A stretch of DNA of 64,000 nucleotides, from positions 2,784,001 to 2,848,000 of the forward strand of contig OZ219791.1 in the NCBI GenBank assembly GCA_964291215.2, given 5' to 3'. The first letter of the stretch is position 1. Each line of letters begins with the position of its first letter. Positions 14,780-59,547 of the stretch are shown piece by piece. The translations under genes were made by a program, and so were the position numbers. Origin of the DNA: Alphaproteobacteria bacterium. GTDB taxonomy: Bacteria > Pseudomonadota > Alphaproteobacteria > MPNO01 > UBA830. Below the pieces are notes generated by a model, which saw only the letters and a program-made list of their open reading frames with translations, ran no database searches and was not told the origin of the DNA.

Positions 14780-16029
14780 GGTACTGTAACTTGATGTCTG
14801 GAAATTTGTCTGAGGTTTGCGCTTTGAGGCGTTTCACTGGGGGGCTAGCCCCCCCAGTGAAACGCGGCGCCATCTTGCTATCCCATGGAGTTGGAAAAAT
14901 TCATGGAGGAAGCGAATGGACCTGCGACACACTACGACGATCGGGACTGTTTTGGAACATCTGATCGCAAACGGAGCAACGGATCTGGGGCGGATCTTTG
15001 GTCAGCTCTTCGAGCTTGCGATGCAAATCGAGCGCGAGCAGCACTTGAAAGCGGGCCACCGGACACCGGAACGACAGGGCTATGCCAACGGCTATAAGCC
15101 CAAACGGATCGACACCCCCACTGTTACCGTTCAGGTGCCAAACGGTCACGGGGACGATCCCCCCCAGTCGCTTGAACGCGGCCAGCGATCTTCTCGCGCC
15201 GTAGCCGAGATGTACATCAAGGGTGTTTCCACGCGGCAGGATGTAATGCGTGAGTTCGGGAGCCTGTCCTCTTCTCAGGTCAGCCGGGCCACCAGGTTGC
15301 TCGATGAAGAACTCGCCGCGCAACCGGCCCCTGATGAAATACCTGGATGCGCGCTATGAAAAAGCTCGCCATGACGGCGTTGTGCGCGATGTCGCAGTGC
15401 TCTCGGCCATCGGAATAGGGGCTGCAGGCACGTTCTGGGGCTCTCTGTGGCGCTCTCCGAGGCCGAGGTCCATTGGAGAGCCTTCCTGGAAAGCTTGCTA
15501 GCCCTGCATGGTACGACCTTTATCGTCTCGGATGACCATGCTGGGCTGAAAGCGGCACGACGCGCGGTGCTGGGCGCGGCGATGTGGCAGCGCTGCCAGT
15601 TCCACTTGGCGCAAAACGCCGTGCACCGAACAACGACATCAGGAAACGTATTGGAAAACAGCTCGGAGCCATGCGTCCTCACTCCAAACCGCCGAGGCTG
15701 AACCGGGCGCCCTCGTGGCCAGCTATCGCGACAAGCGTTCAGGCTTCCTGGCTGGAAAACAATGCGGGGCTCGCTGTCTTCACCTTGCCCGATGCTCACC
15801 ACAAGCGTATGCGAACCTCGAACGGCATCGAGCGACCGATCCAGCAAGAGCTCAAGCGGCGCACCTCCAAAGTCAGGGTCTTTCCGAACCTCGCCTCGTT
15901 GGAGCGCCTCTCAACCGCAGTCCTCATCGACGAAAAATGGGAAACCGAAACCAAGGCATACATCAAATGGGAACAGCTCGATGACTGAGAGCTTCACGAC
16001 AATTTCCAGACATCAGGTTGCGTAATCCC
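14780..16029 (+). mobile_element. IS256-family element, transposase destroyed by many small deletions
   Basis: NGYKPK, EMYIKGVSTR, YLDARYEK, VSDDHAGL, WQRCQFH, RTSNGIER fragments in shifting frames. Imperfect terminal IRs GGTACTGTAACTTGATGTCTGGAAATT / AATTTCCAGACATCAGGTTGCGTAATCCC. Confidence 0.92.
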
Positions 16030-16237
16030 CCAGATCCGTTGCTCCGTTTGCGATCAGATGTTCCAAAACAGTCCCGATCGTCGTAGTGTGTCGCAGGTCC
16101 ATTCGCTTCCTCCATGAATTTTTCCAACTCCATGGGATAGCACGATGGCGCCGCGTTTCACTGGGGGGCTAGCCCCCCAGTGAAACGCCTCAAAGCGCAA
16201 ACCTCAGACAAATTTCCAGACATCAAGTTACAGTACC
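16027..16237 (-). repeat. inverted near-identical copy of the first ~210 bp of the IS256
   Basis: Reverse complement of ~14780-14990, including the hairpin GCGTTTCACTGGGGGGCTAGCCCCCCAGTGAAACGC. Confidence 0.93.
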
Positions 16238-16239
16238 AA

Positions 16240-16459
16240 CAGGGGATCCTCGTCACACAGCGCATGAAGCGCTCCGGCATGCGCTGGCGCATCGTCGGCG
16301 GACAATCACCTTCCGCGCTCTGCTCGAATCCGGCCGCTTCGAGAGCGCGTGGACGGCCATGATCGGTGCAGACGATGCACCAGCCAACGACAACATCAGC
16401 CCAAATCACACCCCGGCACTGGCCGCATGAGATGAACAAATGGTACTGAGTCTGCAACC
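16240..16459 (+). mobile_element. ISKra4/ISLre2-like transposase C-terminal fragment
   Basis: LVTQRMKRSGMRW...GGQ motif. Confidence 0.65.
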
Positions 16460-16830
16460 GTGCCATACGAGAGTCTCACCCACCAAGACGCCACCACCAT
16501 CACCTTGGTGATGGACAACCTTGAACACCCCCCGGCGCTCTCTACGAGGCTTGCCCGCCGGACGAGGCCAGGGCCTTGTGGGACCGCTTCGAGTTCGTCT
16601 ACACCCCCCAAGCACGGCAGTTGGCTGAACGTGGTGGAACTCAACGTCATGATCTGGCAGTGCCTGAACCGTCGCATCGACTGCATCGAGGCGCTGCGCT
16701 GGGAAGTCGCCGCTTGGCAGGCCTCTCGCGACCGCATCCAGGCCAAGGTGGATTGGCAGTTCACCACCGACGATGCCCGCGTGAAACTCAAACCTCTCTA
16801 TACGACATTTTACGAATGACATCACGCTAG
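16460..16830 (+). mobile_element. IS630-family transposase 3' fragment
   Basis: LVMDNL, FEFVYTP/KHGSWLN, QCLNRRI, VDWQFTTDDARVKLKPLY; ends at CTAG. Confidence 0.88.
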
Positions 16831-16955
16831 GGGCCGTCGCGCTCACCACAGATGCAGGGTGGAAGGATGCCCGTGCCGGATGGATTTCTCCCGCGCCGAA
16901 GCCCTGTTGATCGCCTCCAGCGGCAGGGAGACCTCAACGGGCTTCCTGCGGCGCT

Positions 16956-17957
16956 TCATGCCGAAAGCCCGATTTTCATCCGGATCAAATCAGCCAGCTT
17001 CTTGAAATCGTGATAGGCCTCGGAAACGGCCGCTGCATGGTTTCCGATCGCGCCGTCGGCCGCGGTAAGGTGGAAAACGGGTTTCCGGGCCTCCTGCGCC
17101 ATGGGAACCAGACTTCGATAGTGCCGGACGGTTGCAAGACAGTTCTTGTCGTTGCTCGGCTTGTCCGGAAAAGACCCGGCGTCGCAGTTCAACAAATGCC
17201 GGCGGTAGGCTTCGGGTATGCGGTTTACCCACTTGTCATAGGCCTGCACCGGCCGGCCAAGGCGTACGCCATGCTGCTGGACGACATATCCCATCGGCTT
17301 CATGCTGCCGCAGGGCAATTCAAAACCGGGCCAGGCCCAATTGTCTCGGCGTTTCGACCATTCGCTCGTCCACCTTGTCAGCGTCGGACCCAGGTTCCTC
17401 AGGCCTTGGAGAGAAAAGAGGTCTGCCCCCAGCGGCGCGATGACGTGATCGGTTGCGACGAGCGCCGAGCGGTTCAGGGCGCCCAGATTGGGGCCGACAT
17501 CCACGAGGATGATCGTCGCGTCGATGGATGCGGCGCCGCTCTGCATGGTCTGCCAGAATGCGGTGAGGATGCGGAACGGGCGGTACAGATTGGATTCGCC
17601 AAGGGCGTTGGGCCATTCGCTGGAAAGGCTGTCCTCGAAACTGGAGAGCGCCAGGTCGCCGGAAATGAGTCCGAGGGTTTCGGTGATCCGTTTCACCTGC
17701 GGTTCCTGCAAGTCTCCCACCTCCATCAACGGCTGGATGCACTGGTAGATGGTCTGGCTCTTTGCGCCGTCCTCCCACAGCGACTCGAGCGCGCGCTCGT
17801 CGAGGAAAGTTGCAGTCAGATTGGCTTGCGGATCGAGGTCGCAGGCCAGTACGCGCTCGCCGATCTCCGACAGCATCCAGGCGAGGTGATAGACTAGGGA
17901 CGTTTTGCCGACGCCTCCCTTGTTGTTGAAAAAGGTCAGGACCGGCGCGGCCATCAT
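16956..17957 (-). CDS. ParA/CobQ-family ATPase
   Basis: [32 protein letters not shown]. Confidence 0.92.
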
Positions 17958-19177
17958 GCGGCCTCCCCAGCTTCGGGAACTGCCCGTACCGTGGCGAGCA
18001 GGTGCGTCGGCTCGACCGTGAAGTCGAGTTCCGGATGTCCGGCCTCGCGTAACAGGCGTTGCGCGGTCGGTATCCCGATCCCGAATCTCTGCACATAGCC
18101 TAACACCCGCATGGCCTCGGCCAGATTCGGATTGCGGTAGTCCGTCACTCCGGGGCGGGCGAAGTTCTCCTTAGTGACCGACCCGAAGGGTCCGCCGGGA
18201 TTCTGGATTTCGATCCTGTCGTCGAACCAAGTGACGCGGACGGGAGCGTTCGTCGTTTCGTAATCGCGGTGAATGAGCGCGTTCCGTGCGAGTTCCCGCA
18301 AGGCGGTCATGGGGTAGCTGTCCACACGGCGTTCGACATCGTGAGTGGCGATGTCGACCCGGCGAAGGTTGTGCGACCGAAGCTTGTCGTCAAGGCGCGA
18401 TAGCATTTCGGGGATTGTCCCGTCGATTCTTCTCTCGTCGATAACCGGGTCCGAAAGGTCATGCCCCCCGATGCGCAGGAACTGTATGTACCCACCCGGA
18501 ATATAGTCCAGCGGCCTCGTTCCGAGCACCAGCAAACCGAGAATCGTGGCCTGCCCGTCGTCGACGGAAGCAATCATCTTGGCCGCGGCCAAGCGTTCCT
18601 CCAGGCTGCGGTTGTTGGCCCGCAGGAGTTCCCGGTCGATCGCATTGGGCAGATACTCGTCCTCGAACTGGCGTCGATTGAGATCGGCGATGCCGGTGCC
18701 CGGCACCGGCGAAATATCGAAAGGCCGGTCTCCGTGGCGCCGCCTCTCGTTCAGTATACGCTCTTCTTGGGCCGTCGCCACAGCCCGGCGCGGACCGTTG
18801 CGAATGTGGATCGCGCCCCGGTAGCGCACCGGTGGCGAGTCGGACGGCAGGACGGTCACAACGGCGATATCGTGGCCTCGATACCGGCGCTTCTCGGATA
18901 GGATCGGCGGCGGCGGCACGATGTTCCCGTCGCTGCGCATGTCGGCCAGCGCGCGCAGCATCTCGTCGGTGATGGGGGTGCCGGTTGGGACACCGTCGTC
19001 CCCCAGCCCGACGACTGCGATGCCCGGGAGTCCTGAGCCGGGAAGATCGTTGGCGAAGGAGCAGATCGCTTCGCGAAGCCGCGTCGGCGCATTGCCTCCT
19101 AGCGTCTCCTTGAATTCGACCCGCGTGCTTTCCGCGCCCTCGATCAGGCGCGCCAATTCGTCGTCGTCCAGTCTCAT
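17954..19177 (-). CDS. Schlafen/AlbA_2 domain + HATPase_c_4 (RecG C-terminal-like) protein
   Basis: ESTRVEFKE, ICSFAN, RELARNALIHRDY, RIEIQNPGG, YRNPNLAE, QRFGIGI. Confidence 0.88.
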   Translation of the reverse strand: MRLDDDELARLIEGAESTRVEFKETLGGNAPTRLREAICSFANDLPGSGLPGIAVVGLGDDGVPTGTPITDEMLRALADMRSDGNIVPPPPILSEKRRYRGHDIAVVTVLPSDSPPVRYRGAIHIRNGPRRAVATAQEERILNERRRHGDRPFDISPVPGTGIADLNRRQFEDEYLPNAIDRELLRANNRSLEERLAAAKMIASVDDGQATILGLLVLGTRPLDYIPGGYIQFLRIGGHDLSDPVIDERRIDGTIPEMLSRLDDKLRSHNLRRVDIATHDVERRVDSYPMTALRELARNALIHRDYETTNAPVRVTWFDDRIEIQNPGGPFGSVTKENFARPGVTDYRNPNLAEAMRVLGYVQRFGIGIPTAQRLLREAGHPELDFTVEPTHLLATVRAVPEAGEAA

Positions 19178-19543
19178 GGTCCCGCCTCCGCGGCTTTCCC
19201 GATCGCCGATACGGAGATCGTCCGCGAGACCTCCGCGAAGCCGGGCGGCGGTCCGAAAATCCGCGCCGGGTCGGGAACATAGAGCAGCCGGTGGACAAAG
19301 CCGTCTTCGACGAGCACGGCAGCGAGGATGAACGACCCTCCCGCGTTGAGCGCCGTCAGCATCTTGTTGCGCGTGACCGTGACGGCCTCTGCGTCCGCGC
19401 ACCGGCCCTTGATCTCGGTCAAGCGGAGGCCGCCGGTCTCAGGGTCGCGGCTTTCGATGTCACAACCTCGGTTCTCCGACGCAGCGTCGCGCGGCTCGTA
19501 TCCGAGGCTGCGTTCGCGTTTCATGATAGCCTCCATTGCCCTA

Positions 19544-20731
19544 GTAGTCTAACATTATTGTATTGATGGATATAGTGACTTCAGTTTCGTCCGGGCATCC
19601 TTCGTCGTGAAACGCCAGTCGACAGTGACATCGGCCGCATTGCGCCGTTCCACCCATGCTGCCGTCTCCCGCCGCATGGTGTCTCTGTCGGGAATGCGTC
19701 GCCGAAGGCACTGCCGCGACAGTGCACCGATCTCAATTTCGGCCATGTTGAGCCAGCTCCCGTGCTTCGGCGTGTAGCGAAACTCGAACCGCTTTCGCAC
19801 CCGCCTCCTCGGGCTCGAAGGCTTCATACAGCGACTGTGTGTGTTCAGATTGTCCAGCACGATCTTCCTGTCGGGGAAATGGTCGTCGGCAAGCTCCCGG
19901 ATGAAGTGCGCCCGGTTTCACAGCGGTCGGTGACTTTCACCGTGCGCCAGTTCTCGTTGGGCGCAAAGGCCAGGAAGAAGTTGGCCGTACCGTTGCGCTT
20001 ATATTCATGGTCGACCACCTCCGGCTGACCGGGGGTTTCCTTCGTCTGCTGCCGGCTGGTCTCGTACACCAGCACCTCACCCCCGGCAAAGTCCCGCTGA
20101 CAAATGTCAAGCACGTCCGCCGCCACGAACTGTGCGCTCCGGTGCGGTGGAATGCACCAGTACTGCTTCAGCCACGGCTTGAGCTCTTTTTTTAGCGTCT
20201 TCCTGACCGTCTCTTCCGAAATGCGCTCGACGATCTCCACCAGACGGCCGGCGAGCAGCGTCCACAGCCCTCGGGCGGGGACGAGCAGGGCGACCAGCTT
20301 CGCCTCCATCGCCCCGTTTCGGCCGACGGTTCACCTGCTCCTTGCGGCTGAGGGCAGCCTCCGGACCCTCCAGGACGCAGCGCAAGCGCTCGACCGTCGC
20401 CGTGCCCAGCGCAATGTCGGCATCGACAAGCGCCCCTCAGCATCAGGATTTGTGCCCGGCGCCCCCGGTGCCCGATCGCCTTCAGATCCCGGCGCTCCTG
20501 CGCTGAAAGGGTTACCCGGTAGAGCTTCCTGCCCCGAGAGTTGGCCATATGCGCCGCTCCTGTCATTGCGCCGAAGACCTGCGGGCATGCCCGTTGTCCG
20601 GACCTGCGCATGGGGCTGCGGCTGCCTGCCCGTTCGGCATCTTGCCCGTATCGACACTGTCCGGATTCCAACGGATGCCGACACAGGAATACTACCCACC
20701 AAAAACCATCAATACAATGCCGGTGGACTAC
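19544..20731 (-). mobile_element. IS630-family element, decayed
   Basis: IRs GTAGTCTAACATTATTGTATTGATGG / CCATCAATACAATGCCGGTGGACTAC flanked by duplicated TA (19542-3, 20732-3). KPWLKQYWCIP, EYKRNGT, LDNLNTH, TPKHGSWLNMAEIE. Confidence 0.93.
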
Positions 20732-20763
20732 TAGATTCGATTTCGGCGCGGGCTAGGGCGGAC

Positions 20764-21590
20764 GTGCAGCGAGTCTAGCTGCTGATCTTGCGGGTGAAAG
20801 TCCCGCAATTCTCAGTTTGGCGCCGTAGCATTGGTTCAGGGGCGACCCTGGACCAGCGAGCTGGGACGTAGGAAGCCGTCGTGGGCTGGCTGGAACTCAG
20901 TGTCCAGCCGGTTCGGTCAGCTAGGGCGGCGAGCAAACCGGAGGGCGAAAGCGAACGGGAAGCCCCGAAATTCCCCACCCACACGAAGCTGATTGTGGGA
21001 TAGACGGTGAACGCCAAGGTTGCTACCCGATGGCCAGTGTCGATGCGGAAGAACTGAGGAACACGCATCGGGTTCCCCGGGGTACAGACGGCGGCAATCC
21101 GGGACAGATCAGCAGTGAAAGACCGGAAGGTGAGGAGGACAGACAGGATGAAGCGACCCGTCAAGGACCGCGTCTATAACCGGGAAACGGGAAAGGACGC
21201 GGAGTCCACCTGACTGGCGGATGAGGTCGCCTAAGCGTTGACGGGCGGGACAACACAACCCGTCCCGAGCGAGGACCTCAGGGCTCAGGTGGCCTATGCG
21301 GCAGGTCAAGTCGGTACTCAGACCGACAGACTGCAAGGCCGAAGGACGGAGCAAACGCTCGGAGATGCCGTGGGTATGGCTGGGTCAGCCTTGACCATGG
21401 CGTGGGAAGGCTCCGCACCGAACTCCAAGTGGGTGCCTGATGCTTGAACCGGGAAAACCGGACGTACGGAATTTTAGGGGGGCTGCTGGAAACGTGGTCT
21501 ATGGCGATTCTGCGAACCCGCCCGCAATCGAAAGAGCGGTGACGGGTAAAGCCTTCGCCTAAGGATGCGCGCGCCAGTGGCCTACCCGAC
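20764..21590 (+). mobile_element. ORF-less group II intron, antisense within the helicase gene
   Basis: 5' GTGCAG; GGGTGAAAGTCCC; domain V-like GAACCGGGAAAACCGGACGTACGGAATTTTAGGGGGG; long domain VI ending CCTACCCGAC. Excision restores the flanking helicase frame. Confidence 0.82.
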
Positions 21591-23519
21591 GGTGGTTCCT
21601 TCGTGCCGTCCGGGGGAGGGGGGCGTCGCCCGCCTCTTCCCGGCGGAGAAGTCTCGCGGGCACGACAAGGCCGCGCCGCAGACTTCCGGGGGCAGCGGCG
21701 CGAGGTCCCGCTGGCGCGCAATGTCGGCGAGCCGATGCTCTAGGCGATCTGCCAATGCCTCCGCTTGGCGCCTTACATTCTCCGAGTTCAGCCGGGGATG
21801 CTTGCTCGCCTTCTCTTCCGCCTCCAGATCCAGGGCGCGGTGCTGGAGATGAACGATCTCGCGGCGTATCCGCTCTCTGATCGCCGTTTCGATCCTGTCG
21901 AGTATGGCGAGGCACGGCTCTCCTGCCTCCTCCAGATGCCGGGGGGCTAGGTCGGTGACCGCAAGCGTACGTGCCCGCTCTTCCAGGGGTTCCCTGAGCC
22001 AGGGCGCGCCCAGGGTCTCGCCGATCCCGTCCTGCTCTTCCGCCGTCGGCGCGCGGCAGTCCAGATATGGTGCCGGCCCGCCGTTGTTGGCACTGCCGAC
22101 TTCGTGGAGCCAGACGAATTGCAGCCGTTTGGAGAGCGTCTGCGGCTTGCCGTCCCGTGCCGCCCGGCCATCGCGGATCGCATGGTGCAACGTGACCAGA
22201 ATGCGGGCGTCGTCATGCCGGTCGGTGTCGTCGACCAGCACACTCCGCGCGCCAGAAGCTCGCGATAGCGCTCAAGCGTCAGATCGATCAGGGCATCGAG
22301 CAGTGGATGGCCGGGCGCAACAAGTGCCGCCTGCGGCTGGCCAGGGATGTGTTTCCTGTCGAAACAGATGCGACGATAGCGGGGCAGCACCGGATCGGCG
22401 CGGCCGATCAGACGGTCCCGGTCGCGCAAGACGGGCGGAACCCGCGTGATCTCGGCCCGGCCCGTCTCGCGACGGCGCAGGATGCTGCCGGCTTCCTCAA
22501 AAGCTGCCTCGAAGAAGGGGCGGATGTGGTGGGGTTGGAGCCGCCGCGCCGCCGCCCGCTTCATCTCCTCCTGCACGCCGCGGACCGTGGCTGGGTCGAA
22601 CCCCTCCCGGGTCAGCTTGTTGTGTGCGACGAGATCGTTGATGTTGTCGACATCGACCGCGCCGTCGATCGTCTGGAACAGCCTGTCGGATATCTCCGGC
22701 CGCTCGCCGTAGCGGATGGCTTCCATGAACAGCTCGCGCAGCGGCCGGGCCTCGAACAGTTCGCCGAGCACATCGTAGATCCTGCCGCCCAGGGTTTGCC
22801 GTGTCGTCTCCAGCTTTTCCAGAAGCCGTTGGTACACCGCGCCCTCGCGCGTTTCGTTCGCCACCAGGTTCCACAGGTGGCAGACCTCGGTCTGCCCGAT
22901 CCGGTGAATGCGCGCGAAGTGCTGCTCCGGCCGGTTGGGATTCCACGGCAGGTCGTAGTTGACCATCAGGTGAGCGCCGCGTTGCAGGTTCACCCCCTCG
23001 TCGGCAGCGTCGTTGGCGAGAAGGAAGCGGACGGAGGGATCGTCGTTGAACGCGACGATGGCGGCGCGCCGCCGGTCGCGCGGGACGCTGCCGTGGATGA
23101 CGGTCACACTGTCGGGCGCGCCCGTGCGGTCGCGGATACGGTGGGCGAGATACTCCAACGTGTCGCGCGCCTCGGTGAAGACGACGATCTTGCGGCGCGC
23201 GCCCTGCCGGGGATCGTGGATTGGGGGGTCGTCGAAGATGCGGTCGAGTTCGTGCCATTTGTCATCCTCGCCAGACCGGCGGAGCGCGTTCGCCATGGCT
23301 TCGAGCCGCCGCAGCTCGGCGACCTCGGCTTCAAGTTCGGCGACCGTGCGGGCCGCCGTGGCGCGGTCGACGAGTCGGTCTTCGTGCGCCTCCAGCTCTT
23401 CGCCCGTGGCGTCTTCGAGAGCATCGTTGTCGAGCATAGCTTTCGGCACGGCCGCTTCTCCGACCTCGTGCCCGGCGCGGCCGAGCCGTTCTTCCTCCAG
23501 CCGCGCCTCGAATCGCAAC

Positions 23520-23737
23520 GTCGTGAGGATGGCGGACGGGAAGGCGCCCGACATCAGGGCGGTGGTCATCGATCTCGACGCCTCGTCGGATCGCATCTTG
23601 CCGCACGGCAATCGCTCCCGGGAACGAAGAAGGTCTGGCAGGGTCTCGAGCGGCTGCACCGGGCGATCCAGGTGCGCGACGCACTGGGCAAGAGAAGGCG
23701 GGAATGAGATACCTGTATGAGTGTGGGATGTTGAAAG
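23520..23737 (+). mobile_element. IS4-family (Tn5-like) transposase 3' end remnant
   Basis: RQSLPGTKKVWQGLERL; ends TTGAAAG like the element at 56062-58002. Confidence 0.72.
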
Positions 23738-24124
23738 GCCTGTCGTGGCGGGACCGCGCAGGGAAAGGAGAAAGCCGAAGCCTGTGATGAACGGTTTGAA
23801 GAAGGGGCCCTGTGAAGGCGGCGAACAAGGGAGCTTCTGCGGAGTTGCTGGAGGAAAGGGCCTCGACCAAGGGGAATTCGGGACACAAAAGCACGCGCCG
23901 AACGCAGTGTCGGGTGCCACAGGCGGCGGACCGGATACGGAAAGCCGCAGAGGTTCGACTGGAAGCGACTGGAGCGCATGACCGAGATTCTTTGGCCGCG
24001 CGCAACAATCCGCCACCCATGGCCGGACCAGCGGTTTGCCGTCAAGCACCCGAGGGCGGATGGATTAACGTCCATGTCCGGATTTGTGCGGGGGGTGCGC
24101 AGTAATGCGCATTCCTACCGTAAC
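23738..24124 (+). mobile_element. group II intron remnant (5'-truncated, RT ORF internally deleted)
   Basis: RT start (VPQAADRIRKAA) joined to RT end (IRHPWPDQRFAVKHPR); domain V/VI CGGATGGATTAACGTCCATGTCCGGATTTGTGCGGGGGGTGCGCAGTAATGCGCATTCCTACCGTAAC. Confidence 0.82.
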
Positions 24125-25273
24125 TCGGTGACGACATGGAGCGATCGGGTCCTGCCGTCGACCCGGAAGCCGGTTTCGTCGACATGCAGGGCCGGGCGTT
24201 CCGGCAGCTCGGCGATGGCGGCCTGGAGTGCAGCGCGTCATGCAGGCGCCTGACGCAGGCGAGGCAGGTGGCCTCGTAGAGCCTGAGCCCGGAGACCGCC
24301 TGCACCAGCGCGACGGCGCAGGGACAGCATTTGGGCGACCGGCAGGTTGATGACGAAGGCCTGCAGACCGACGCCGTATTGCAGCGGCCCGGGCATGGTC
24401 TCGGGAAACCGCCCCCGGCAATCCGGGCATTCCTTGACCTCGGCGTCGATGCGGCGCTCGATGACCTCGAAGACGATGTCGTACGACGCTCCCGGTCGAC
24501 AGCCTCGACGCCATCGAGGCCGCAGGCCTCGACGGCGACCGTCTCCTCGACGATGGTCTTCCAGAGGTTGTCGCCCGTCTGCAGGTTCGGCTTCGGGCCC
24601 TTGCCGCTGGCGCCCTTGCGCCGCTCGTCCTTGTCCGTCTGCGACGGCGCAAGGCCGGAGTTGGCGCCGGTGGGTCGTCTTCTCCAGCAGGACGGCAATC
24701 AGGATGCTCACCAAGGTGGACAGCACGCGGATCACGTCATCGGCCTCTCCGGATATCTTGCCGGCAGCGCCGCGATCCTGGCCGCCTCGAACTCCTCGCG
24801 CAGCGACGCCGCGTCGCCCGGCGGCATCTTCCGGTACCCCGCCGCCTGGCCTTGCGCCTGATGCGCTGACGGTCCGTGCGGTTCCGTCCGACATCGCCGG
24901 CCGAGTGCATCCGCCCGGGCTCGAAGTCGAGCCACCTCGGTGCGGACCCGGGGCGTCACCTGCACGGCGATGCGGCGCCAGTCCCGCAGCAGGTCGTCGT
25001 ACAACGCCGAGGCGCGGCCCGAGACCATCGCCTGACACGGCAGCCCCTTGAGCAGTTCAAGGAGTTCGACATGGTTGGCTTCGGTGCAGTCGTGACGGTA
25101 CCGCCGCTTCGATCGGCGGGTCGCCTGCAGGGGTCGCTGCAGACCAGTTTCGTGCCCCGGAACGCAAGGCCGGCCAGGAACGCGTGGGCGCAGCCGTGGA
25201 TCAGTTCCACCGGATAATCGCACCCGAACCCGTCCAGCGATCGCCGGTCGATCCCGATCGAGCGCAAGGCCGG
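24125..25273 (-). mobile_element. IS66-family remnant: DNA methyltransferase fragment plus transposase 5' half
   Basis: PALRSIGID..YPVELIHGCAH..SDP..HVELLELL..VSG..LYD MTase fragments; EKTT..NSGLAPSQTDK, ECPDC, LHVDETGFRVDG. Confidence 0.82.
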
Positions 25274-26569
25274 GTGATGGCGACGGTCAACGCGGCGCGC
25301 GAGGAGTTCGAAGCGGCCAAGACCGCGGCGCTGCGTGCGGCCGGCAAGGTGGCGGAAGAGGCCGTCATCCGCGTCCTTGTCATCCTGCTCGACATCATCA
25401 TCGTCGTCCTTCTGGAGAAGACCACGCGCAAAACGAGCCGGAACTCCGGTCTGCCGCCGTCACAGACGGACAAGAGCGTGCCGGAAGCAACGGCAAGGGC
25501 CCGAAGCCGAACCGGCAGATGGGCGACAACCTGCGCAAGACCATCGTCGAGGAAACGGTTGCGGCCTGCGACGCCTGCGGCGCTGACATCGACGGCCCCG
25601 TCGATCGGGAGCGCCGCGTCCTCTATGACATCGTGTTCGAGGTCGTCGAGCGCCGCGCCGAGATCAAGGAATGCCCGAAGTGCAAGGGCCGGTTCCCCGA
25701 CAACATCCCGTGCAGTACGGCATCCAGGCCCTCGTCATCAACCTGCTGGTCGCCCAGATGCTATCCCTGCGCCGTCGCGTTCGTGCAGGCGATCTCCGGC
25801 ATCAAGCTCTCCGAGGCAACCTGCCTCGGCTATGCTTTCACGATGCGTCATGGGAGGAGGCCGCCGTGGCGCACCTCCTGCAACGCCCAGCCCTGCATGT
25901 CGACGAGACCGGATTTCGGATCAACAGTAAGTGGCTCCATGTCGTGGGACCCTGACGTGCAAGTTCCCGCACCGCAAGCGCGGGCAAGAGATCGGCCCGT
26001 GCTACAAGGGCGTCCTGGGCCTCGTACATGGGCCAGTGTAGCCACCAGCTGTGCGGTAGCCACCTGCTGCGCGAACTGACCTTTGTCGTCGAGGCTACCG
26101 CGCGACTGATGAAGAGCCTGCTCCGCGAGGTCTGCCACAAGGTCAACAAGAGCGCATCTAAAACCCTGAACGACGCCGGGCCGTGCGCAAGCGCTACCGC
26201 ACCATCAGGGCGCCAAGGAACTGCCCGACATTCCGCCGCCGCCGAAAGGAAAACGTGGACGCAAGTCCGACGCGCACAACCTGCACGAACGTCTCGTGAA
26301 ACACGAAAACCTGCGCTTCACAGACGACCCCAACGTCAGCTTCACCAACAATGCCGGAGAACAGAAGATCAGGATGGCAAAGGTCAAGGTGTCCGGGTGC
26401 TTCCGCTCCACGCAAAAGCATGGTGCCGGGGCTCAAGCTACCTCACCTCCATGGCCGCACTCGGCTACAACCCACTCGTCGCCACCCAGATCGCCCTCGA
26501 CGGAAAAGCCGCAGACATCATCAACGAGCACTATGGCCAATCAGAATCCAACTAGGGGTGAGTAGATAC
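25262..26569 (+). mobile_element. IS66-family (single-ORF ISBst12-like) transposase copy A, decayed
   Basis: NSGLPPSQTDK, LHVDETGFR, HQLCGSHLLREL, FTNNAGEQKIRMAKVK; right end GGGGTGAGTAGATAC; near-identical to 54069-55345. Confidence 0.92.
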
Positions 26570-28975: not shown

Positions 28976-30316
28976 TCAGCGGCGCTGCCCCGTATCCTTG
29001 AGGCCGCGGAGCGCCTTTTCGGCAGCCTTGGTGTCGGCGATGCCGGCCTTGCGGTCGACCGGGACTGTCTCCTTCTGGCCGGCCTTCGGAAGCTTCTCGA
29101 ACGGGTAGACGGCGATCTTGTCGTTTCCTGCCGACGTGTCGCGGTCGAGGACGAGGTCCCTGGCGTTGGTCTTGCCGCTTCGCATTGCGCGGCCGTGCTT
29201 CTTCGCCGTCTCCAGGTCGAGCCACCACTTGCCGGCCACGTTGCGCCGGCCGAAGCCCATCTTGTCGTCGAGCCAGATCAGGAACCGACGTGACCAGGGG
29301 AGGCGGATCGCGGCCCACATCGCAAGCCGGTGCTGCAGCAGCCCTTCCTTGTTCCAGGGGCACATCTTCATGCACCTGCCGCAGGAGGAACCCTTGAGGT
29401 TCGTGACCCGGTACTTGGTGCATTTCTCGACATCGGGCTTCCAAGTCTCGTAGCCGTTGTAGAGCACTTTCTCCCCGTAGGGGATGGCCTGGGCAGGGCA
29501 TTCGCGGGCGCACTTCATGCACTTGGCGCAGAAGTCCTGCAGCCCGAAGTCTATCGGCTTGTCGACCGTCATCGGAAGGTTGGTCGTGATTATCGCCGTC
29601 TTGTGGCGCGGCCCGACGAACGGGTTGAGCACGAGTTCGCCGATGCGGCTCATTTCGCCGAGCCCGGCCAGCAGCATCAGCGGAATCTGCAGCACATCGC
29701 CGTCGGCGTTGGAATGCGCCTGCGCCTCGTAGCCCAGCCGGCGGATGTAGTCGGCAACGACGACCGAGATCGTCGAGCCCTTGAGATAGGCGCGGTAGCT
29801 CTGGGCACCCGAGATCCAGTCGTCGCCCGAAGACGCCTCAAGGGTCTCCCAGCGCTGGTCGACGACCACGACGATGGCGTATTTGTGCTTCGCCTCTATG
29901 GGCTCACCGTCCATGTCGTGGCTGTACCAGGCCCATTCCGGGCACTCGCAAATGCCGACGATGTCGGCATCGAGGAAGTGGCAGAGCGCCTTGATGTGCT
30001 TCGCCATCCCCTCGGGATCGGAGGGAAGTTCGGCCGGTTCCGCATAGGGATCGCCCCGGTGGGTGGGGACCTGGGTCCAGTGCACATGGCCCATCGCAGC
30101 GTTGAGCGGATTCTTGGTGATAAAGCGGCGTATCTCCTTGCCGGCCGTCGGTCCGAGGTCGCCGAAAAAGGCGCGCACGAAGAATCCGGCCCGTTTCGGA
30201 ACCCGTTCTATGCTGTCGGTGATCAGCGTCGTCGGCCGGTCGACCCGGGGGATCTTCTCCATCGGGAAGCGGCCCATGTAGAGTGGCCGTCCGCGCCGTG
30301 AGAGTATGCCCAGCAT
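28976..30316 (-). CDS. catabolic-type reductive dehalogenase (cobalamin, 2x[4Fe-4S])
   Basis: HIKALCHFLDADIVGIC..W.YS, YIRRLGYEA, AGLGEMSRIG..LNPFVGPR.K, DFCAKCMKCARECP and CGRCMKMCPWN; no Tat signal. Confidence 0.88.
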   Translation of the reverse strand: MLGILSRRGRPLYMGRFPMEKIPRVDRPTTLITDSIERVPKRAGFFVRAFFGDLGPTAGKEIRRFITKNPLNAAMGHVHWTQVPTHRGDPYAEPAELPSDPEGMAKHIKALCHFLDADIVGICECPEWAWYSHDMDGEPIEAKHKYAIVVVVDQRWETLEASSGDDWISGAQSYRAYLKGSTISVVVADYIRRLGYEAQAHSNADGDVLQIPLMLLAGLGEMSRIGELVLNPFVGPRHKTAIITTNLPMTVDKPIDFGLQDFCAKCMKCARECPAQAIPYGEKVLYNGYETWKPDVEKCTKYRVTNLKGSSCGRCMKMCPWNKEGLLQHRLAMWAAIRLPWSRRFLIWLDDKMGFGRRNVAGKWWLDLETAKKHGRAMRSGKTNARDLVLDRDTSAGNDKIAVYPFEKLPKAGQKETVPVDRKAGIADTKAAEKALRGLKDTGQRR

Positions 30317-37645: not shown

Positions 37646-38275
37646 CGCGGCCTCCGGCTGCCGCGGACGTTCGCTGGCCGCAGCGAACATGAAGACGGAT
37701 CGATGGTCGGAGCGAATTGCGGGAATTGGCGGGCAGGCACGGGCAACCCCGCTGCGTTCAGACCGGTGCGCGACAGTCCCGGGTCGCTGTCTGTCTCCCG
37801 GCCCCCGGCGCGGCCTTGAATCTCCGCGACGACGCCGCACTCGCATGGACAGCCTCACATAGGCGATTGTCTTGCAGCAGTCAATCGGCGCCCGCCCGGC
37901 GCCATGATGATCCCATGCTAATTCGGAGACGCGAAATCCGAGTGCGTTGGCGCTCGCGTCATCACAGATCGCCTCCTTGATCGCAATTTTTCCCGCCGGG
38001 AAGGCCCCGTCGAGCCTTGGCGGCACGATTGCAGCGCGACGCAGACTGAAAAATCTCGCCAGTCGCTGCTGGATTGGCAGCGTCGGATCACCGTCGTCCG
38101 GCGCCGCCGGGAGATGCCGGAAATTGCGGCCCATGGCCGCGGATGCTAAGATCGTTGTCGGCGTGCATCCTTGATGGGGTGCGCCGTCAGGCAGATGATG
38201 ATTCTGCGCACCATGTGCCCCGGCTCCGCGCCGCGGAGGCGACCGACCATCGGGCAGACACGAAAGGGAGGAGTA

Positions 38276-52738: not shown

Positions 52739-52746
52739 TTCGACGT

Positions 52747-53286: not shown

Positions 53287-53328
53287 CGCCGGTATTCCTC
53301 CCTGCAACCCCTCCTCACGCGCCGCCGA

Positions 53329-53490
53329 TCAGCGTTCTGTCGGCATGCCTCGTTCGAGATCGGTCTCGATTCCTTTTATCACCTCTCTGACGCTGCCGCA
53401 AAGCGGCAGGCTGAGCCGGAGCGCGTCGGCTTCCCTCAGGATGGTCGACATGTCCTTCTCGGCCCATGGCATCGGCCAGTTGTAGACTTC
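53329..53490 (-). pseudogene. 3' remnant of an NAD(P)-dependent (3-hydroxyisobutyrate dehydrogenase-like) oxidoreductase
   Basis: MPWAEKDM.TIL.EAD..RLSLPLCG.V.EVIKG C-terminal motif; 5' part replaced by mobile DNA. Confidence 0.5.
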
Positions 53491-53569
53491 GATTGGAGCA
53501 GCGCGTCGCGGAGTGGACCGGTCTCGACGCCGAGGCTCTTGGCCAGCCTCATGCTTTCGACGTTGGTTG

Positions 53570-53690
53570 AGATACAGGCCCAGACCACCGCGATCTACGC
53601 CCATCTTGACGATGGCGCGCTGCAGGATGCCGCCACGCAGGCCGCAGCCGTTATTACGCGCGCCATGGGATACAGGCGCCTCCAATGCCG
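53570..53690 (+). pseudogene. tyrosine recombinase C-terminal fragment
   Basis: QAQTTAIYAHLDD catalytic-Tyr region. Confidence 0.6.
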
Positions 53691-53794
53691 GACGGGGCGG
53701 AACACGGCGATGCATCGACCGACATACCTGCGCCGTCTAGGCCTGGTGCGTCGGCCTCACCGGAGGGAGAGCGATCCTCTCTCCGGGGCAGAGC

Positions 53795-56061
53795 CTTTCA
53801 ACGAACCATGATCGAGTCTTCGTTCATGAGGCGTAACTGCTCACCCCCTGGTTCCGGCTTGATGTCGGGGTAGAGCAACGAACGGGGTTCCGTGGAGATT
53901 TGACACTGCATGCCGATTCGCTTAGTGGTGGTCATCGAGAACGACGGGGACCGCCAGTGGGCTACTTTGGATCGAAGGCGACGAGCGGGCTGTGCCAGCT
54001 GCTTCCGGGGCTCCAGCCTCCGCATGATCTGTATGTGGAAACGCATTTCGGAGGCGGCGCGCTGATGAAGCGCAAGGCCGGGTGATGGCGACGGTCAACG
54101 CGGCGCGCGAGGAGTTCGAAGCGGCCAAGACCGCGGCGCTGCCGGCAAGGTGGCGGAAGAGGCCGTCATCCGCGTCCTTGTCATCCTGCTCGACATCATC
54201 ATCGTCGTCCTTCTGGAGAAGACCACGCACGAGCCGGAACTCCGGTCTGCCGCCGTCACAGACGGACAAGAGCGTGCCGGAAGCAACGGCCCGAAGCCGA
54301 ACCGGCAGATGGGCGACAACCTGCGCAAGATCATCGTCGAGGAGACGGTCGCGGCCTGCGACGCCTGCGGCGCTGACGGCCCCGTCGATCGGGAGCGCCG
54401 CACGACATCGTGTTCGAGGTCGTCGAGCGCCGCGCCGAGATCAAGGAATGCCCGAAGTGCAAGGCCCGGGGCCGGTTCCCCGACAACATCCCGTGCAGTA
54501 CGGCATCGGCATTCAGGCCCTCGTCATCAACCTGCTGGTCGCCCAGATGCTGTCCCTGCGCCGTGCCGTCGCGTTCGTGCAGGCGATCTCCGGCATCAAG
54601 CTCTCCGAGGCCTCGGCTATGCTTTCACGATGCGTCATGGGAGGAGGCCGCCGTGGCGCACCTCCTGCAACGCCCGATGTCGACGAGACCGGATTTCGGA
54701 TCAACAGCAAGTGGCTCCATGTCGTCGGGACCCTGACGTGCAAGTTCCCGCACCGCAAGCGCGGGCAAGAGATCGGCATCATCCCGTGCTACAAGGGCGT
54801 CCTGGACCTCGTACATGGGCCAGTGTAGCCACCAGCTGTGCGGCAGCCACCTGCTGCGCGAACTGACCTTTGTCGTCGAGGCTACCGCGCGACTGATGAA
54901 GAGCCTGCTCCGCGAGGTCTGCCACAAGGTCAACAAGATCGCATCCAAAACCCTGAACGACGACGTGCGCAAGCGCTACCGCACCATCAGGGCGCCAGGG
55001 AACTGCCCGACATCCCGCCGAAAGGAAAACGTGGACGCAAGTCCGACGCGCACAACCTGCACGAACGTCTCGTGAAACACGCAAACCTGCGCTTCACAGA
55101 CGACCCCAACGTCAGCTTCACCAACAATGCCGGAGAACAGAAGATCAGGATGGCAAAGGTCAAGGTGTCCGGGTGCTTCCGCTCCACGCAAAAGCATGGT
55201 GCCGGGGCTCGAGCTACCTCACCTCCATGGCCGCACTCGGCTACAACCCACTCGTCGCCACCCAGATCGCCCTCGACGGAAAAGCCGCAGACATCATCAA
55301 CGAGCACTATGGCCAATCAGAACCCAACTAGGGGTGAGTAGATACCATGAGGCCTTATATAGTAGCCCATGAGAATTGGCTTTCGACATCTGTCCACGAC
55401 GACGGTTGATTGGCTGAAGGTGGCGCCGGTTGCCGAGAGCGGCACGCCCTGGCGCAGGGATTGTGCGAACGCGAGGCGCAACGCGAAGGGCGAGCTGTGG
55501 CTTGCCGCGTGCGGCCCTGCCTGGTCTTGCCTCGGCGCTCGGCATCGTCCTTCCTGCACCAAGGCCTCGACATTGGCACCCTTGAGCGGGACTATCCCGA
55601 CAAGCCACTCGCATGTTCTCCGGAGGAGCTTGGCGAGGTCACCGTAGAGCCGGTCGGCGACGACGAGGACAAGCGCCTGGCGATGATGACGACCTGGCAT
55701 CCCGAGGCGCGCGCACCCGGATGAGCTACCGGATCACCTCGTCGTGCTACGGCCGCCTCGGCGGCCTGGTGTTCCGTGCGGCCAATTGGCATCAGAAGGC
55801 GCGCGACGACTTCTGGTCCCGGGGAGCGCGTGACGTTCACCTCGGCAAGGTCGTCAACAACGCCCGCTTGCTGATACTTCCGTCGGTGAATGTTCCGGAG
55901 CTGGCCTCCCATGTCCTGGCCTGCCGGCGGCTTGCTGCGGACTGAGAAGTGACGCCGGTTCCGGCCTACGCCTATGTGAGCCCCGAAGACACCGGCACGA
56001 GCTACAGGGCGGCAGGCCGGGAGCGTTGTGAGAAGATGACCTCGGGCCGACCTCCCGGGGC
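53795..56061 (+). mobile_element. IS4-family/DUF4338 element 1 (left part), interrupted by IS66 and by element 2
   Basis: Left end CTTTCAA at 53795. After removing the IS66, ATG MRIGFRH (55369) sits at about the same distance from the end as in element 2. WHQKARD, VVNNARLLILP.V fragments. Confidence 0.7.
53833..55345 (+). mobile_element. IS66-family element copy B with methyltransferase 5' fragment; both ends intact, 8-bp TSD
   Basis: IRs GTAACTGCTCACCCC / GGGGTGAGTAGATAC; TSD CATGAGGC at 53825-53832 and 55346-55353; GYFGSKATSG..PHDLYVETHFGGGA followed by a decayed transposase. Confidence 0.94.
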
Positions 56062-58002
56062 CTTTCAACTGAGCACTGTAAACTCGAAGCAACTGACGCC
56101 GTATACACAGTTCCATGAGAATCGGCCTGCGACATTATGGCGGCGAGACGGTTGACTGGCTGAAGGCACGGCTTGGTGCCGGGGATTGCACGCGGACCTT
56201 CCTGGCACGTGAGCTCTGCGAGCGTGAGGACTGGCGGAACGCGAAGGGAGAACTGTGCCTCGACCCGGGCCGCGCTTCCAAAGTTCTCCGCCGCACTCGG
56301 TCTGCCTCTGCCGGAGGCTCGGTAACCCCGGAGTCCCTGGCCCCGTCGCCGGATTATCCCGACAGGCACCTGTCGTGCCGTCTTGGCGAGACCGGCGTGG
56401 TTCCGGTTGCCGACGAGGACAAGTCGCTGGCGTGGTCGATGATGGCATCGCATCATCCCGAGGCGGCCTGTCCCGGGCATCCGCTACTGGATTCTCTCGT
56501 CCCTGCACGGCGTCCTCGGCGGCCTGGTGCTGCGTCTTGGCATCACAAGGCGCGGGACCTCCACATCGGCTGGCGGCGCGGGACGCCAACATCGGGCGGG
56601 TTGTCAACAATGACAGGTTTCTTCCCGGCGTCCACGGGCTTGCGTCCGTGGCGCTGTTCCATGGTCGCGTGACCGGGAGGAGCGCTACGGTGTTCGCCTG
56701 GCGTACAGCTACGTGGGTGCGGAGCCTACCGTGCTGCGGCGTGCTGCAAGGGGTTGCGGGTGTACGTGAAGCCGCTGTCGGCGGACTGGTCTCTCGGGCG
56801 GGCCGGGTGATCGGTTCAGGCCCGCGTCGAGGGAGGATGGCGGAGTACGGACGGAGCGCGCACAGCGACGCGCGCTTTGTCACGATGGGCGAGGCCTGGT
56901 GCGGTCGTCCGGGTGTGCCGGTGATCTTTCCCGGCGAGGCGGAGCAGCTTGCAGGTTCCTGTCGAACCCGAGGATCGGCATGCAAGACATCTTTGAGCCG
57001 CGTCAGGAGGCGATGCGTTGCCGCAGCCAGTCTGTTGCGGTTCAGGGATGCTGAACTACAGCGAGGCAACGCAGGGCCTTGTCGACATCGGCGGCTCTGG
57101 AAGCAAGGGGCTCATGTCGGCGTTGCGTTCAGCGGTTGCGCACTGGGGGTATTCAGCCTTGATTCCGCGCGGAGGACAAGGCAACGGCGGGCGAGGAAAG
57201 CGGACGGACGCCTTCGCCAAGTCCGCCGAGGCGGCCTGCCCGCGAACCCGCCCGTCTGCGACCGTGAGGGCGACATGTGGTCTCTCCTGTCCGGAGGCCT
57301 GCGCCGTCGCGCCCGGCGGCTCCTGGTCCGCGCCAGCCGTTCAGGCGGGCCATCACGGCGGACGGCAAGGCCAGGGACCTGTTCGCGGCCGAATTGGACA
57401 TCGTCGCGGAGAAGACGGTCGACATCGCCGCCTGTGGCGGCCCCCGGACGCGCAAGGGGCGCAACAAGCTGCGGGCCGATCTCGTCCCGCCCTGGACACG
57501 GCCCCACTCACCATGCTCGCGGTGCGCGTCCTGGAGAAGACGCCGCCGACAGGACCGGCTGGTTGCTCCTGACCACCGAAGGTGAGCCCACGCAGGAGAA
57601 CGCGATCCGTGCCTGGAAACGCTGGCTGAGAGTGGTTCGCGGCCGTCAAGACCGGAACGCGGATCAAGGGGCTCAACGCCGCCGACGACCTGAGGAAGTG
57701 CCTCGTCTGCCATTACCGCATGCACCGTCATCCTCGCGCGGAGGCCGGCGCGCACGATCGTCCACGAGATCCATGTCCTCGCCGTCCACATACCGAACCA
57801 CCGCAGGCAACGCGGCCCACCCGACCCGGATCAGGCGATCGCGGAGTTCGCCGTCAACACCGCGCGCCTCGCCGGATTCATCCCGTCGAAGCGCCAGCCC
57901 ATGCCGGGTACTCACAAATTCTGGGAAGGATACCTGATCCTGTTCATTGAAAACTACCGGCGCGACTACGCCAACATCGATTCGACAGTGTACCATTGAA
58001 AG
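56062..58002 (+). mobile_element. IS4-family (Tn5-like) element with N-terminal DUF4338-like region, decayed
   Basis: IRs CTTTCAACTGAGCACTGT / ACAGTGTACCATTGAAAG; LARELCE..DWRN.KG, IGRVVNNDRFL, VCDREGD, LLVRA, WLLLTT, GFIPSKRQPMPG...WEG. Confidence 0.82.
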
Positions 58003-58393
58003 GCCGCCGCCGATCGCAACCGAATCCGTGCGGCTAAAGCCGCGGTAACGGCTGCGCCGTGAACCTCTGCGCTCGCGGCACAAGTGAACGCAGACCGCAT
58101 CGCCAGCAATACCGGCGCTGTCTTTGTCCATCGGTGCGATGCGGGAACATGTGAAACGCAATCTCCAGGCGCATGGACCATGTGAGACGGAACGTCTGTG
58201 CTGCGGGAACAACTCCGTCTCTGTCCGGCGTCCGGTGCGCCCTGTGTGACGGACGGCGCAACGCCTTTCCGCTGCGCGGCCCGTTCTGTTATCGTGGCTC
58301 ACGAACGACAACGCGGAACGCGCTCGAAGATCGCGGACCGGTCGTCTCGCTCAATTGCCGCGACGGCTCCATCTCCTTGTGACGCCGGCGTTT

Positions 58394-59547
58394 CGGATTC
58401 TCGCCAGAATAGGTTGATCATTATTTCCGTGGCGTGAGGGTATGGTTCCACTCGCCGTGGAACGGGTCTCTGCGGATGGCGAGGCCGTCCATCTGATCGT
58501 CGGTGACCTTGACCCCGAGCGGATAGCTGTTCTCGTCGAGGTCCGAGCGTATGGTGAGGCCGGTGGTGGTCGCGGCGATCAGCTTGACGATCACCTGGTA
58601 GCTGACGAGGGGCCGGCCGCGCCAGTTCCGGGTGATATGGCAGAACATCCGGTGCTCGATCTTGTTCCACTTTCCGGGCGGGAAGTAGGCCACCGACACC
58701 TTCAACCCGAGTTCGTCGGCGAGGTGCTGCAGCTTCCACAGCCGGTTGCGGCTGCTGCCGTCGGCGGTGATCAGCAGGCGCCTCGCATCGGGATAGACCA
58801 GCTGGCCCATCTGCCGCCACCAGCGGCCTCGACCGCAAACGCCGCCGTGTCGTGTCCGACGCTGACCCGGCCGGCATTGGCGGTGAGATCGTAGAGCCCG
58901 CAGGGGATCCGAGCTCCGGATCGGGGAAGTCATGTACGTTGACGGCTTCAGGGTCGCCCTCGGGGCCCGGCCGCCATTGCGGTACTGGATTTCCTTCTTC
59001 TTGGTGTCACCACAGGCTGGCCCAGCCTCCGGAACGCGCGCACCCGGCGCGTCGGAACTGCGCATCCCGGGCTGGCGGCCTTCCAGCGTCTTGCGATTGG
59101 CCTGGAGGCTGTACCCCGGATCGTGGAGCAGCCGGTTCACCGTGCGCTCGCTGACGCCCTTGACCGCAAGACGGTCCGCCAGCGGCACTGTGACACCGCA
59201 GCGAACTCTCCGGATCGCCGCGCGTCATCGGTTCAAGCTCGCGCGCCGCCACCAACCCCGGATCCGCCACCCGCTTGCGCCCGCCGCCGGGGCGACGCAA
59301 ACGTCCTGAAGGAATCTCACTCGAAGACTCCGAATCAAGCTCCTCCGGCGCGAACGGTGCCCATCCCCGTCGCCTCGACCACTCGCCCGATGGCACGGGC
59401 CTCCGTCGCCGCCCACAGGCGCCGCGCACGTTCGTTCAGAACCGGACGCAACACTACAAACTTGGATCGCAGCGTATCGACCATCGCTTCCATGACATCA
59501 TTGATAGTAGATCCACGCCAAAAACAATCTATTTTGGCGAGGGACCT
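58394..59547 (-). mobile_element. ISAzo13-family element, decayed
   Basis: IR CTCGCCAGAATAG / CTATTTTGGCGAG; RRPGGGRK, RGDPES, GYSLQANRK, DTKKKE, KWNKIEHRMF..I..NWRGRPL, FHGEWN. Confidence 0.9.

Follow-up and report, generated by a model that had tools for sequence, protein, structure and literature searches.

In a window of 64,000 nt from the genome of an uncultured alphaproteobacterium (G000:C2:2784001-2848000), insertion sequences (ISs) of unrelated families and two group II introns are marked by short deletions, chiefly of 5–7 nt, most of which recur in other copies of the same element. We find that these deletions belong to a genome-wide mutation class that is not specific to repeats at its origin, and that homology governs their spread and not, measurably, their appearance. 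It is likely that short-tract conversion favouring the shorter allele loads whole IS and intron families with shared deletions and destroys their reading frames; that a lineage-specific short-deletion mutator combines here with deletion-biased gene conversion between repeat copies is an explanation that we hold with moderate confidence. The host genome (G000) measures 6.15 Mb in two contigs and is 99% complete; repeats of at least 200 bp make up about 33% of it. Its DnaG finds its best matches among Alphaproteobacteria and Rhodospirillales records, at 39–60% identity, and the host genes of the window give full-length family matches.

Deletions in the repeat families

Near-full matches in G000 number 75 for the IS256 element of the window, 56 for IS630, 157 for IS66, 20 for ISAzo13 and 11 for intron A; 50, 54, 99, 15 and 10 copies, respectively, were aligned end to end. 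The reference was the majority over all columns present in at least two copies (at least one for the intron), and the deletion mosaic of each copy was read from assembled sequence alone. For IS256 this reference has an open frame of 425 codons, and the gaps are therefore taken as losses. Deletions of 5–7 nt number 3–22 per copy in IS256 (median 15), 4–14 in IS630 (10), 11–28 in IS66 (22) and 2–13 in ISAzo13 (11), and every one of the 218 end-to-end copies has at least one deletion of 5–14 nt, while insertions amount to 0–2 per copy. The IS256 element of the window has 14 gene deletions of 5–12 nt relative to longer copies (e.g. near 15059, 15142, 15160, 15236, 15422 and 15669), each found in 10–48 of the 50 copies. 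The IS66 element that retains its target duplication has about 30, most of them present in 40–96 of 99 copies; in ISAzo13 the deletion at 58671, within PPG-TS-KWN, is common to 13 of 15 copies, and those of intron A are each present in 4–5 of 10. The family of this intron (window 20764-21590) falls into two subgroups that differ by about 10%; deletions riddle the first and are almost missing from the second. A sister copy of it scores 46 bits against Rfam RF02003 (gathering score 49) and the window copy has no Rfam match.

The original prediction, made on the window alone, had proposed that residues were missing from several transposase motifs and that both introns had a shortened 5′ arm of domain V. 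Counts of intact and shortened motifs in a six-frame translation of G000 bear out most of this: AGHYERTP occurs 10 times and AGHRTP 63 times (IS256), HGSWLNxxEIE 31 and HGSWLNxxELN 46 times (IS630), FPxGTSKWNKIEH 3 and FPxGKWNKIEH 17 times (ISAzo13), and, for the second ISAzo13 motif, ITADxGGSNGxRxRLWK once and ITADGSSRNRLWK 5 times. The deletion in the IS256 motif DTP is equally real (DTPxxTV 2, DTPTV 60), but the residues supposed to be lost, AG, read VG in the long copy seen; likewise the gap at DDP[FY]P exists, but in the window it is a 7-nt frameshift and not a loss of two codons. Nor do intact ISAzo13 relatives naturally lack these residues: among the best 80 of 590 metagenome loci by score, a set biased toward intact copies, two residues separate PPG and KWN in 79, and ADxGGSN..RxW is present in 72. 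In intron B, domain V has indeed lost 6 nt at its start relative to the copy at C2:2102720, through a deletion at 24054/24055 common to most aligned copies; in intron A, domain V has the same, unusual form in 13 of 13 copies found, no sister being longer. Finally, the expectation of uniform deletions holds for the short size class and fails for a constant 6 nt, since 5, 6 and 7 nt all occur.

Across 89 repeat tiles of at least four copies each we counted 566 distinct events of 5–7 nt (136, 263 and 167 of 5, 6 and 7 nt). Pairwise gap sizes between copies peak at 5–7 nt in 8 of 8 copy-number classes, which speaks against chance, and the gap rate climbs from 0.66 per kb in two-copy repeats to 6–8 where there are more than 20 copies, whereas substitutions remain level at 23–45 per kb. 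Together with the effect of distance from the element end described below, this supports the predicted tie of deletion density to copy number and homology. Low-copy or young IS256 and IS66 elements retain open frames of 422–635 amino acids. A young IS66 family, with seven alleles of 5–8 nt each in 1–3 of 12–15 copies, shows the start of the spread, and among multicopy host genes an autotransporter family carries ten alleles of 6 nt against two of 5 or 7 nt, the same leaning as in single-copy genes (below). The size window is the same in IS256, IS630, IS66, ISAzo13 and group II introns, and no resolved family has a target duplication of 5–7 bp, in agreement with the proposal that the process is independent of transposase chemistry. 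A transposition footprint was discarded on the same ground, the resolved target duplications measuring 8, 9–10 or 0–4 bp.

Origin in single-copy DNA

The congener G001 is 91.3% identical to G000 over 478 kb aligned, out of about 0.6 Mb taken from 5 Mb. Counting only gaps with clean flanks (coding 411 kb, non-coding 48 kb), G000 lacks 5–7 nt at 53 single-copy sites and G001 at 6. In coding sequence 5, 6 and 7 nt are missing 1, 21 and 3 times from G000 and 1, 1 and 0 times from G001; the corresponding non-coding numbers are 7, 11 and 10 versus 1, 3 and 0. Gaps of 1 nt are symmetric between G000 and G001 (coding 15/10, non-coding 56/57). That few of the 53 sites are tandem duplications supports loss in G000, in what is a two-genome comparison without outgroup. 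The 6-nt size accounts for 21 of 25 events in genes and 11 of 28 in spacers (6 versus 5+7 nt, P=0.0017); genes have thus kept nearly only in-frame losses, which indicates that selection acted on real mutations. One such gap, in a hydantoinase-type gene of the window (Table 1), shows this class of mutation in its background form.

Density differs widely between compartments: 0.04 per kb in intact genes, 0.17–0.65 in 17 broken genes (4 events) and 0.58 in spacers, compared with 7–13 per kb per copy in the interior of long repeats. However, private deletions are no more frequent in repeats: they number 14 against 1181 private SNPs (single-nucleotide polymorphisms) over nine long families, 3 against 299 over five short families, and single-copy spacers have 28 per ∼2,940 substitutions, i.e. 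about 1 per 105 (simple arithmetic, with equal branches assumed). These near-equal rates suggest that origin is uniform and that spread is what differs; the roughly 20-fold richness of the repeats would then come from deletion alleles spreading between copies far beyond point mutations. The idea that copy number triggers the deletions is therefore not upheld: relative to private substitutions they are about equally rare in repeats and in single-copy non-coding DNA, and genes and spacers present in one copy also have deletions of this class, with an identical weak preference at the ends.

Spread between copies

Every copy of IS256 (50/50), IS630 (54/54) and IS66 (99/99), and 14 of 15 of ISAzo13, has its own deletion pattern. 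SNP linkage decays within 30–100 bp, with r2 near background past 100 bp, and in the three large families 73–93% of the deletion pairs separated by over 30 bp violate the four-gamete rule: a non-tree-like mosaic with linkage decaying with distance, as ectopic gene conversion produces. SNP diversity of deletion carriers is 0.30 at 1–5 nt from the deletion and 0.76–0.81 at 6–40 nt, with no reduction further out, and alleles seen at least twice are not clustered (55 overlaps versus 52.8 ± 6.7). Taken together, the individual patterns, the linkage decay, the flanking SNPs shared to about 40 nt and the unclustered alleles point to single origins copied in short tracts. In the intron copy at C2:14822 a tract was imported from the other subgroup, deletions and SNPs together.

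The deletion class reaches high frequency more than neutral alleles do, as expected of biased gene conversion. Protein-changing SNPs and deletions stand at 328:34 among singletons and at 34:58 among alleles of at least 25% frequency (P=1×10−25). The ratio of alleles in at least four copies to singletons is about 3:1 for 5–7 nt and 0.1–0.7:1 for 1–4 and 9–10 nt, the excess of common alleles being limited to sizes of 5–8 nt and their doubles of 11–14 nt. Since additional deletions in dead copies are invisible to selection, and unbiased conversion leaves the expected load flat, the spread appears to be directional.

The spread also tails off toward the element ends, over roughly the last 150 bp: from the end inward, the load per kb per copy is 1.2 (outer 75 bp), 1.7, 7.0, 8.6, 12.4 and 13.2 (beyond 450 bp), while private SNPs remain level at 83–129 per kb in all six bins. 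Five repeats shorter than 230 bp have a load of 0.84 per kb (174 copies used) despite copy numbers up to 77. A hint that new deletions are rarer near ends lost significance once variants overlapping common alleles were removed, and flank swapping between copies was not detected, the matches (3/28 and 2/10) equalling the chance maximum.

Junctions, related genomes and candidate machinery

Microhomology of at least 2 nt is enriched at the junctions (50% versus 20%) but is absent altogether in 29% of the 566 events (null 52%). Together with the scarcity of insertions, this led us to reject replication slippage, the more so as 32 of 65 events in the related genome G002 have none. On either strand the lost piece tends, weakly, to start with not-C, pyrimidine, C. 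An end profile trained on the repeats cross-validates (P=1.6×10−10) and, applied to 42 deletions in single-copy DNA, gives scores above those of local nulls (P=0.003), as expected of one process. We found no PAM (protospacer-adjacent motif)-like motif within 26 nt of deletions, no periodic spacing, no hairpin-loop preference (P=0.62), no palindromy within events and no clear transcription-strand bias (48 versus 35).

G002, 74% identical to G000, shows the same pattern in its own elements, with 32, 23 and 10 distinct events of 5, 6 and 7 nt: the end profile is the same (P=0.001) but the size ruler is shifted shorter (P=5×10−5). Microhomology is scarce there, many lost pieces begin with ATC on one strand, and one pair of copies is seven such gaps apart with zero substitutions in 2106 bp. 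Both genomes are near-complete 6.1 Mb assemblies and the most IS-rich of the genus sampled. G001 has no single-copy excess of 5–7 nt deletions. The repeats sampled from further genomes were small and low in copy number: a few 6–7 nt gaps are all that G003 (over 2.7 kb of alignment) and G004 (over 17 kb) show, and G036 has one 5-nt gap, so that such deletions may still originate there. The trait thus appears patchy within one genus.

The upper size limit, the end preference and the difference between species imply an enzyme with a ruler, and we infer, in line with one of the options in the original prediction, that it is host-encoded. Single-family searches, which may miss divergent members, did not find Ku, Piwi/Argonaute, NucS, type IB topoisomerase, ATP-dependent ligase, RecT or archaeo-eukaryotic primase in G000. 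Full-length matches were obtained for RecA, MutS, the MutL N-terminal domain, RecJ, UvrD, RecQ, PolA, DnaE, DnaQ, RNase HI and RNase HII. DinB is present in G000, G002, G003 and G004 and was not found in G001, where its neighbourhood is unassembled; reverse transcriptases occur in G000, G001 and G002 and so do not track the trait. NucS has two weak matches in G002, and SNP density in the deleted pieces is 0.8–1.7 times that of distant sequence in four families. The lower limit of 5 nt fits escape from MutS. According to the part of the source consulted, mismatch repair corrects insertions and deletions (PMC13644597).

Guide-directed cutting (clustered regularly interspaced short palindromic repeats, CRISPR, or Argonaute) followed by end joining was rejected, as no full-length spacer match, PAM-like motif within 26 nt, Ku or Piwi was found in G000. 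Cas1 is found in 5 of 5 genomes of the genus, affected or not. G000 has two CRISPR arrays with cas1, one at G000:C1:574246-581179 with many long insertions between repeats, the other at G000:C2:2068487-2069543 with 16 regular spacers; neither gave a full-length spacer match in the G000 genome.

Features of the window

The elements are listed in Table 1. Near the left end of the IS256 element (window 14835-14865) lies a hairpin whose G and C run lengths differ widely among copies. Genome-wide, the 8-bp target duplication of this family is clean on the right and stuttered on the left: its third base, six bases from the element end, usually becomes a run of 1–5 extra bases (sometimes a short repeat), as seen in 13 of 18 copies retaining their own duplication, and empty sites in other repeats confirm that the extra bases are new. 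The target duplications of IS66, by contrast, are clean in 36 of 36. A literature search found no published report of this stutter.

IS66-family elements seem to carry, upstream of the transposase (window 53940-54075 and 24900-25270), a passenger that we take from its motifs to be a DNA adenine methyltransferase. The multicopy element at 55360-56062, with a Druantia DruA-type domain (PF14236), adjoins an IS4-like transposase remnant. Of the other genes, a SNF2-like helicase related to DISARM DrmD (21600-24049, minus strand) is flanked and interrupted by intron and repeat insertions, and a reductive dehalogenase family protein (28976-30316, minus strand) scores over the NCBIfam cut-off.

Table 1. 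Repeats and related features in the window (nt positions within the 64,000-nt stretch)
Position	Strand	Feature	Evidence
14780..16027	+	IS256-family element, dead	PF00872 over cut-off at 15390-15632; copy alignment
16028..16237	-	Additional copy, inverted, of the initial 210 bp of the IS256 element (end region spared from deletions)	
16440..16830 (left boundary approximate)	+	IS630-type fragment, HGSWLNVV-ELN shortened	Presumed IS630-type from its motif
19541..20734	-	IS630-type element, 16 deletions of 5–23 nt, 56 near-full genome copies	Presumed IS630-type from motifs and CTAG ends
20764..21590	+	Group II intron A, without open reading frame, seven deletions of 6 or 12 nt	
23746..24124 (left boundary approximate)	+	Group II intron B, remnant	Copy alignment
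25270..26569 (left boundary approximate)	+	Second IS66-family copy, deletion mosaic different from that of the first	
37885..38111	.	Short repeat resembling a miniature inverted-repeat transposable element, 76 copies, 0.6 deletions per kb per copy (internal control)	
53833..55345	+	IS66-family element, 8-bp target duplication intact	Sister copies match PF03050
55360..58006	+	Two more multicopy elements with the same gaps, the first with a DruA-type domain	PF14236 (first); second presumed IS4-like from motifs only
58400..59541	-	ISAzo13-family element, 13 deletions of 5–15 nt	Sister copy matches PF07592
61916..61928 (approximate)	-	In-frame 6-nt gap relative to G001 in a single-copy hydantoinase-type gene (61706-63814)	

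Possible explanations

In the explanation that we favour, deletions originate rarely and genome-wide, at about 1 per 85–105 substitutions, with a weak end preference and optional microhomology, and selection purges the frameshifting sizes from needed genes. On the statistical evidence, a deletion that occurred once is then copied onward with at most about 40 nt of flank, a transfer that needs some 150–300 bp of shared sequence on each side and carries the allele to frequencies far beyond those of point mutations. As to the mechanism, pairing of a deleted with an intact copy could loop out the extra 5–8 nt, too large for MutS (limit about 4 nt), and a host nuclease restricted to loops of up to about 8 nt might excise them; on occasionally misaligned strands the same activity would create new deletions. 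We propose that origin and spread share size and end preference because one nuclease activity would act in both.

Several observations do not sit easily with this scheme. At 6–40 nt, deletions are less tightly linked to flanking SNPs than SNPs are to one another (SNP diversity 0.76–0.81 versus 0.60–0.70), and of 250 nearby pairs 224 have the deletion with each of the two SNP backgrounds; recurrent cutting also predicts both. When singletons are counted, more alleles overlap than chance would give (123 versus 83 ± 8). A two-end test, whose score was picked from the same data as tested, favours an opposite-strand preference at both ends, as in a staggered double cut and unlike simple loop clipping (correlation 0.05; two-end model −0.03 ± 0.08, one-end −0.19 ± 0.07); in G002 the preference looks one-ended by eye. 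The rise of allele frequency with end score (rho 0.34, P=5×10−4) fits either reading. Some families of 2–5 copies hold more distinct deletions than the single-copy rate predicts, such as the two-copy group II intron encoding a reverse transcriptase (G000:C1:94900-97100 and C2:13000-14700), whose copies are more than 20 gaps of 5–13 nt apart with few substitutions. The G001 alignment covers only about 0.48 Mb, the neutral control is small (4 events in the 19 kb of 17 broken single-copy genes), and seven candidate enzyme families gave no match in G000.

Some of these points would be better explained by a homology-sensing defence, in which paired long duplexes trigger cutting at preferred sites and rejoining with a loss of 5–7 nt, independently in each copy, as a deletion counterpart of fungal repeat-induced point mutation (see below), the single-copy events being a leak. 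It would account for the many alleles of low-copy families and for the two-ended, staggered-cut-like preference, as well as for the need for long flanking homology, the sparing of ends and short repeats, the frequencies that track end score and the ruler that differs by species. However, mixed sizes would be expected at each site, yet shared alleles are unclustered (ends shared 13 times versus 14.5 by chance); flanking SNPs common to carriers out to 40 nt, and shared single alleles in general, are explained less well; private deletions per substitution are no commoner in repeats (ends versus interior, P=0.13); and searches of G000 turned up neither Ku nor Piwi nor an ATP-dependent ligase, and no spacer that matched at full length. 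We consider independent cutting unlikely. Less probable again is a past mutator burst in founder elements, which then multiplied in trans as non-autonomous copies, with unbiased conversion among them and ends kept by selection. The spared ends would follow, IS66 copies with deletions do lie each within a clean 8-bp duplication specific to that copy (36 of 46 paired copies), and intact low-copy IS66 and IS256 relatives might supply transposase; but on population-genetic reasoning unbiased conversion cannot lift the load above the neutral rate (7–13 versus 0.04–0.65 per kb), the majority IS256 frame, open for 425 codons, argues that founders were not long decayed, allele frequencies spread from 2% to 98% rather than clustering at a founder share, and such founders would be required for ribozymes and five unrelated transposase families alike.

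Two other possibilities concern the source of the deletions. A resident transposase or integrase could, through abortive strand transfer, leave target-site deletions as long as its stagger: the weak two-ended preference resembles a transposase target consensus, the affected genomes are the richest in ISs of the genus sampled and many tyrosine recombinases are present. This we regard as very unlikely, as the resolved target duplications include none of 5–7 bp and it would at most explain origin, not spread. An artefact of assembly or polishing, by which mis-mapped repeat reads wrote an allele mosaic into each copy, seems highly improbable, even though the width of the spared zone, about 150–300 bp counted from the unique flanks, is similar to the read length and insert size of short-read sequencing, and the evidence from both affected near-complete 6.1 Mb assemblies consists of assembled sequence only. 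Overwriting would erase private SNPs, yet their density is equal inside and at ends (83–129 per kb); it could only move deletions already in some template; the class is found in single-copy genes, with selection on reading frame; the ruler differs between species; and the repeats of the single-contig genomes G003 and G004 are nearly clean.

Comparison with known systems

The control of IS blooms in bacteria is usually credited to selection and a slow deletion bias. Here, a single class of mutations with a sharply defined size, which spreads between copies whatever the element type, has killed the large families that were tested, and in the full-text literature, outside which most subscription papers and supplements fall, we found no description of a fixed-size directional deletion sweep across unrelated families. 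It is likely that the sweep represents a new form of biased gene conversion acting like genome defence, and would be an undescribed way to disable mobile DNA. Such a route to mobile-element extinction predicts that short non-autonomous elements outlive their parents; it has a measurable signature (size window, end preference, species-specific ruler), and the existence of affected and unaffected close relatives allows a hunt for the enzyme.

Heteroduplex loops of at least 5 nt are known to escape mismatch repair in bacterial transformation and oligonucleotide recombineering. The lower limit of 5 nt is the same here, with MutS and MutL present in G000, but that escape has no sharp upper limit at 7–8 nt, no end preference and no strong direction toward the short allele. 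The Topoisomerase 1/ribonucleotide deletions of yeast and human cells, of 2–5 bp, similarly have a short size ruled by an enzyme and optional microhomology; however, a type IB topoisomerase was not found in 5 of 5 genomes of the genus, RNase HII is present and the size is 5–7 nt.

In repeat-induced point mutation (RIP) of filamentous fungi, a methyltransferase-like protein changes C to T, and each copy is mutated on its own. As here, long homology is needed, short repeats escape, unrelated mobile families are disabled alike and duplicated host genes are at risk. The dependence on homology length is thus RIP-like, whereas the lesions in G000 are deletions, common to copies and also arising in single-copy DNA, and not independent and repeat-confined. 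A true bacterial counterpart of RIP, i.e. a homology-dependent defence enzyme encoded by the genus that removes ruler-length pieces of 5–8 nt from paired DNA as a one-way deletion ratchet, is a tentative idea that we are inclined to doubt; if it were correct, a dedicated defence would extinguish every mobile family above about 300 bp in length that has amplified.

Gene conversion among IS copies was reportedly described in Wolbachia by Cordaux in 2009 (cited in PMC3205602 and PMC3004938), where, too, many non-functional IS copies in one alphaproteobacterial genome are exchanged by conversion. The degraded ISs of Wolbachia decay through substitutions and deletions over time, and the consulted part of that source mentions no fixed size of 5–7 nt, no bias toward the deleted allele and no sparing of ends (PMC3205602). 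A last likeness is to the SPDIR microindels of Acinetobacter baylyi which, in the part of the preprint consulted (bioRxiv 10.1101/2023.11.22.568220), are likewise short-patch changes written from ectopic DNA.

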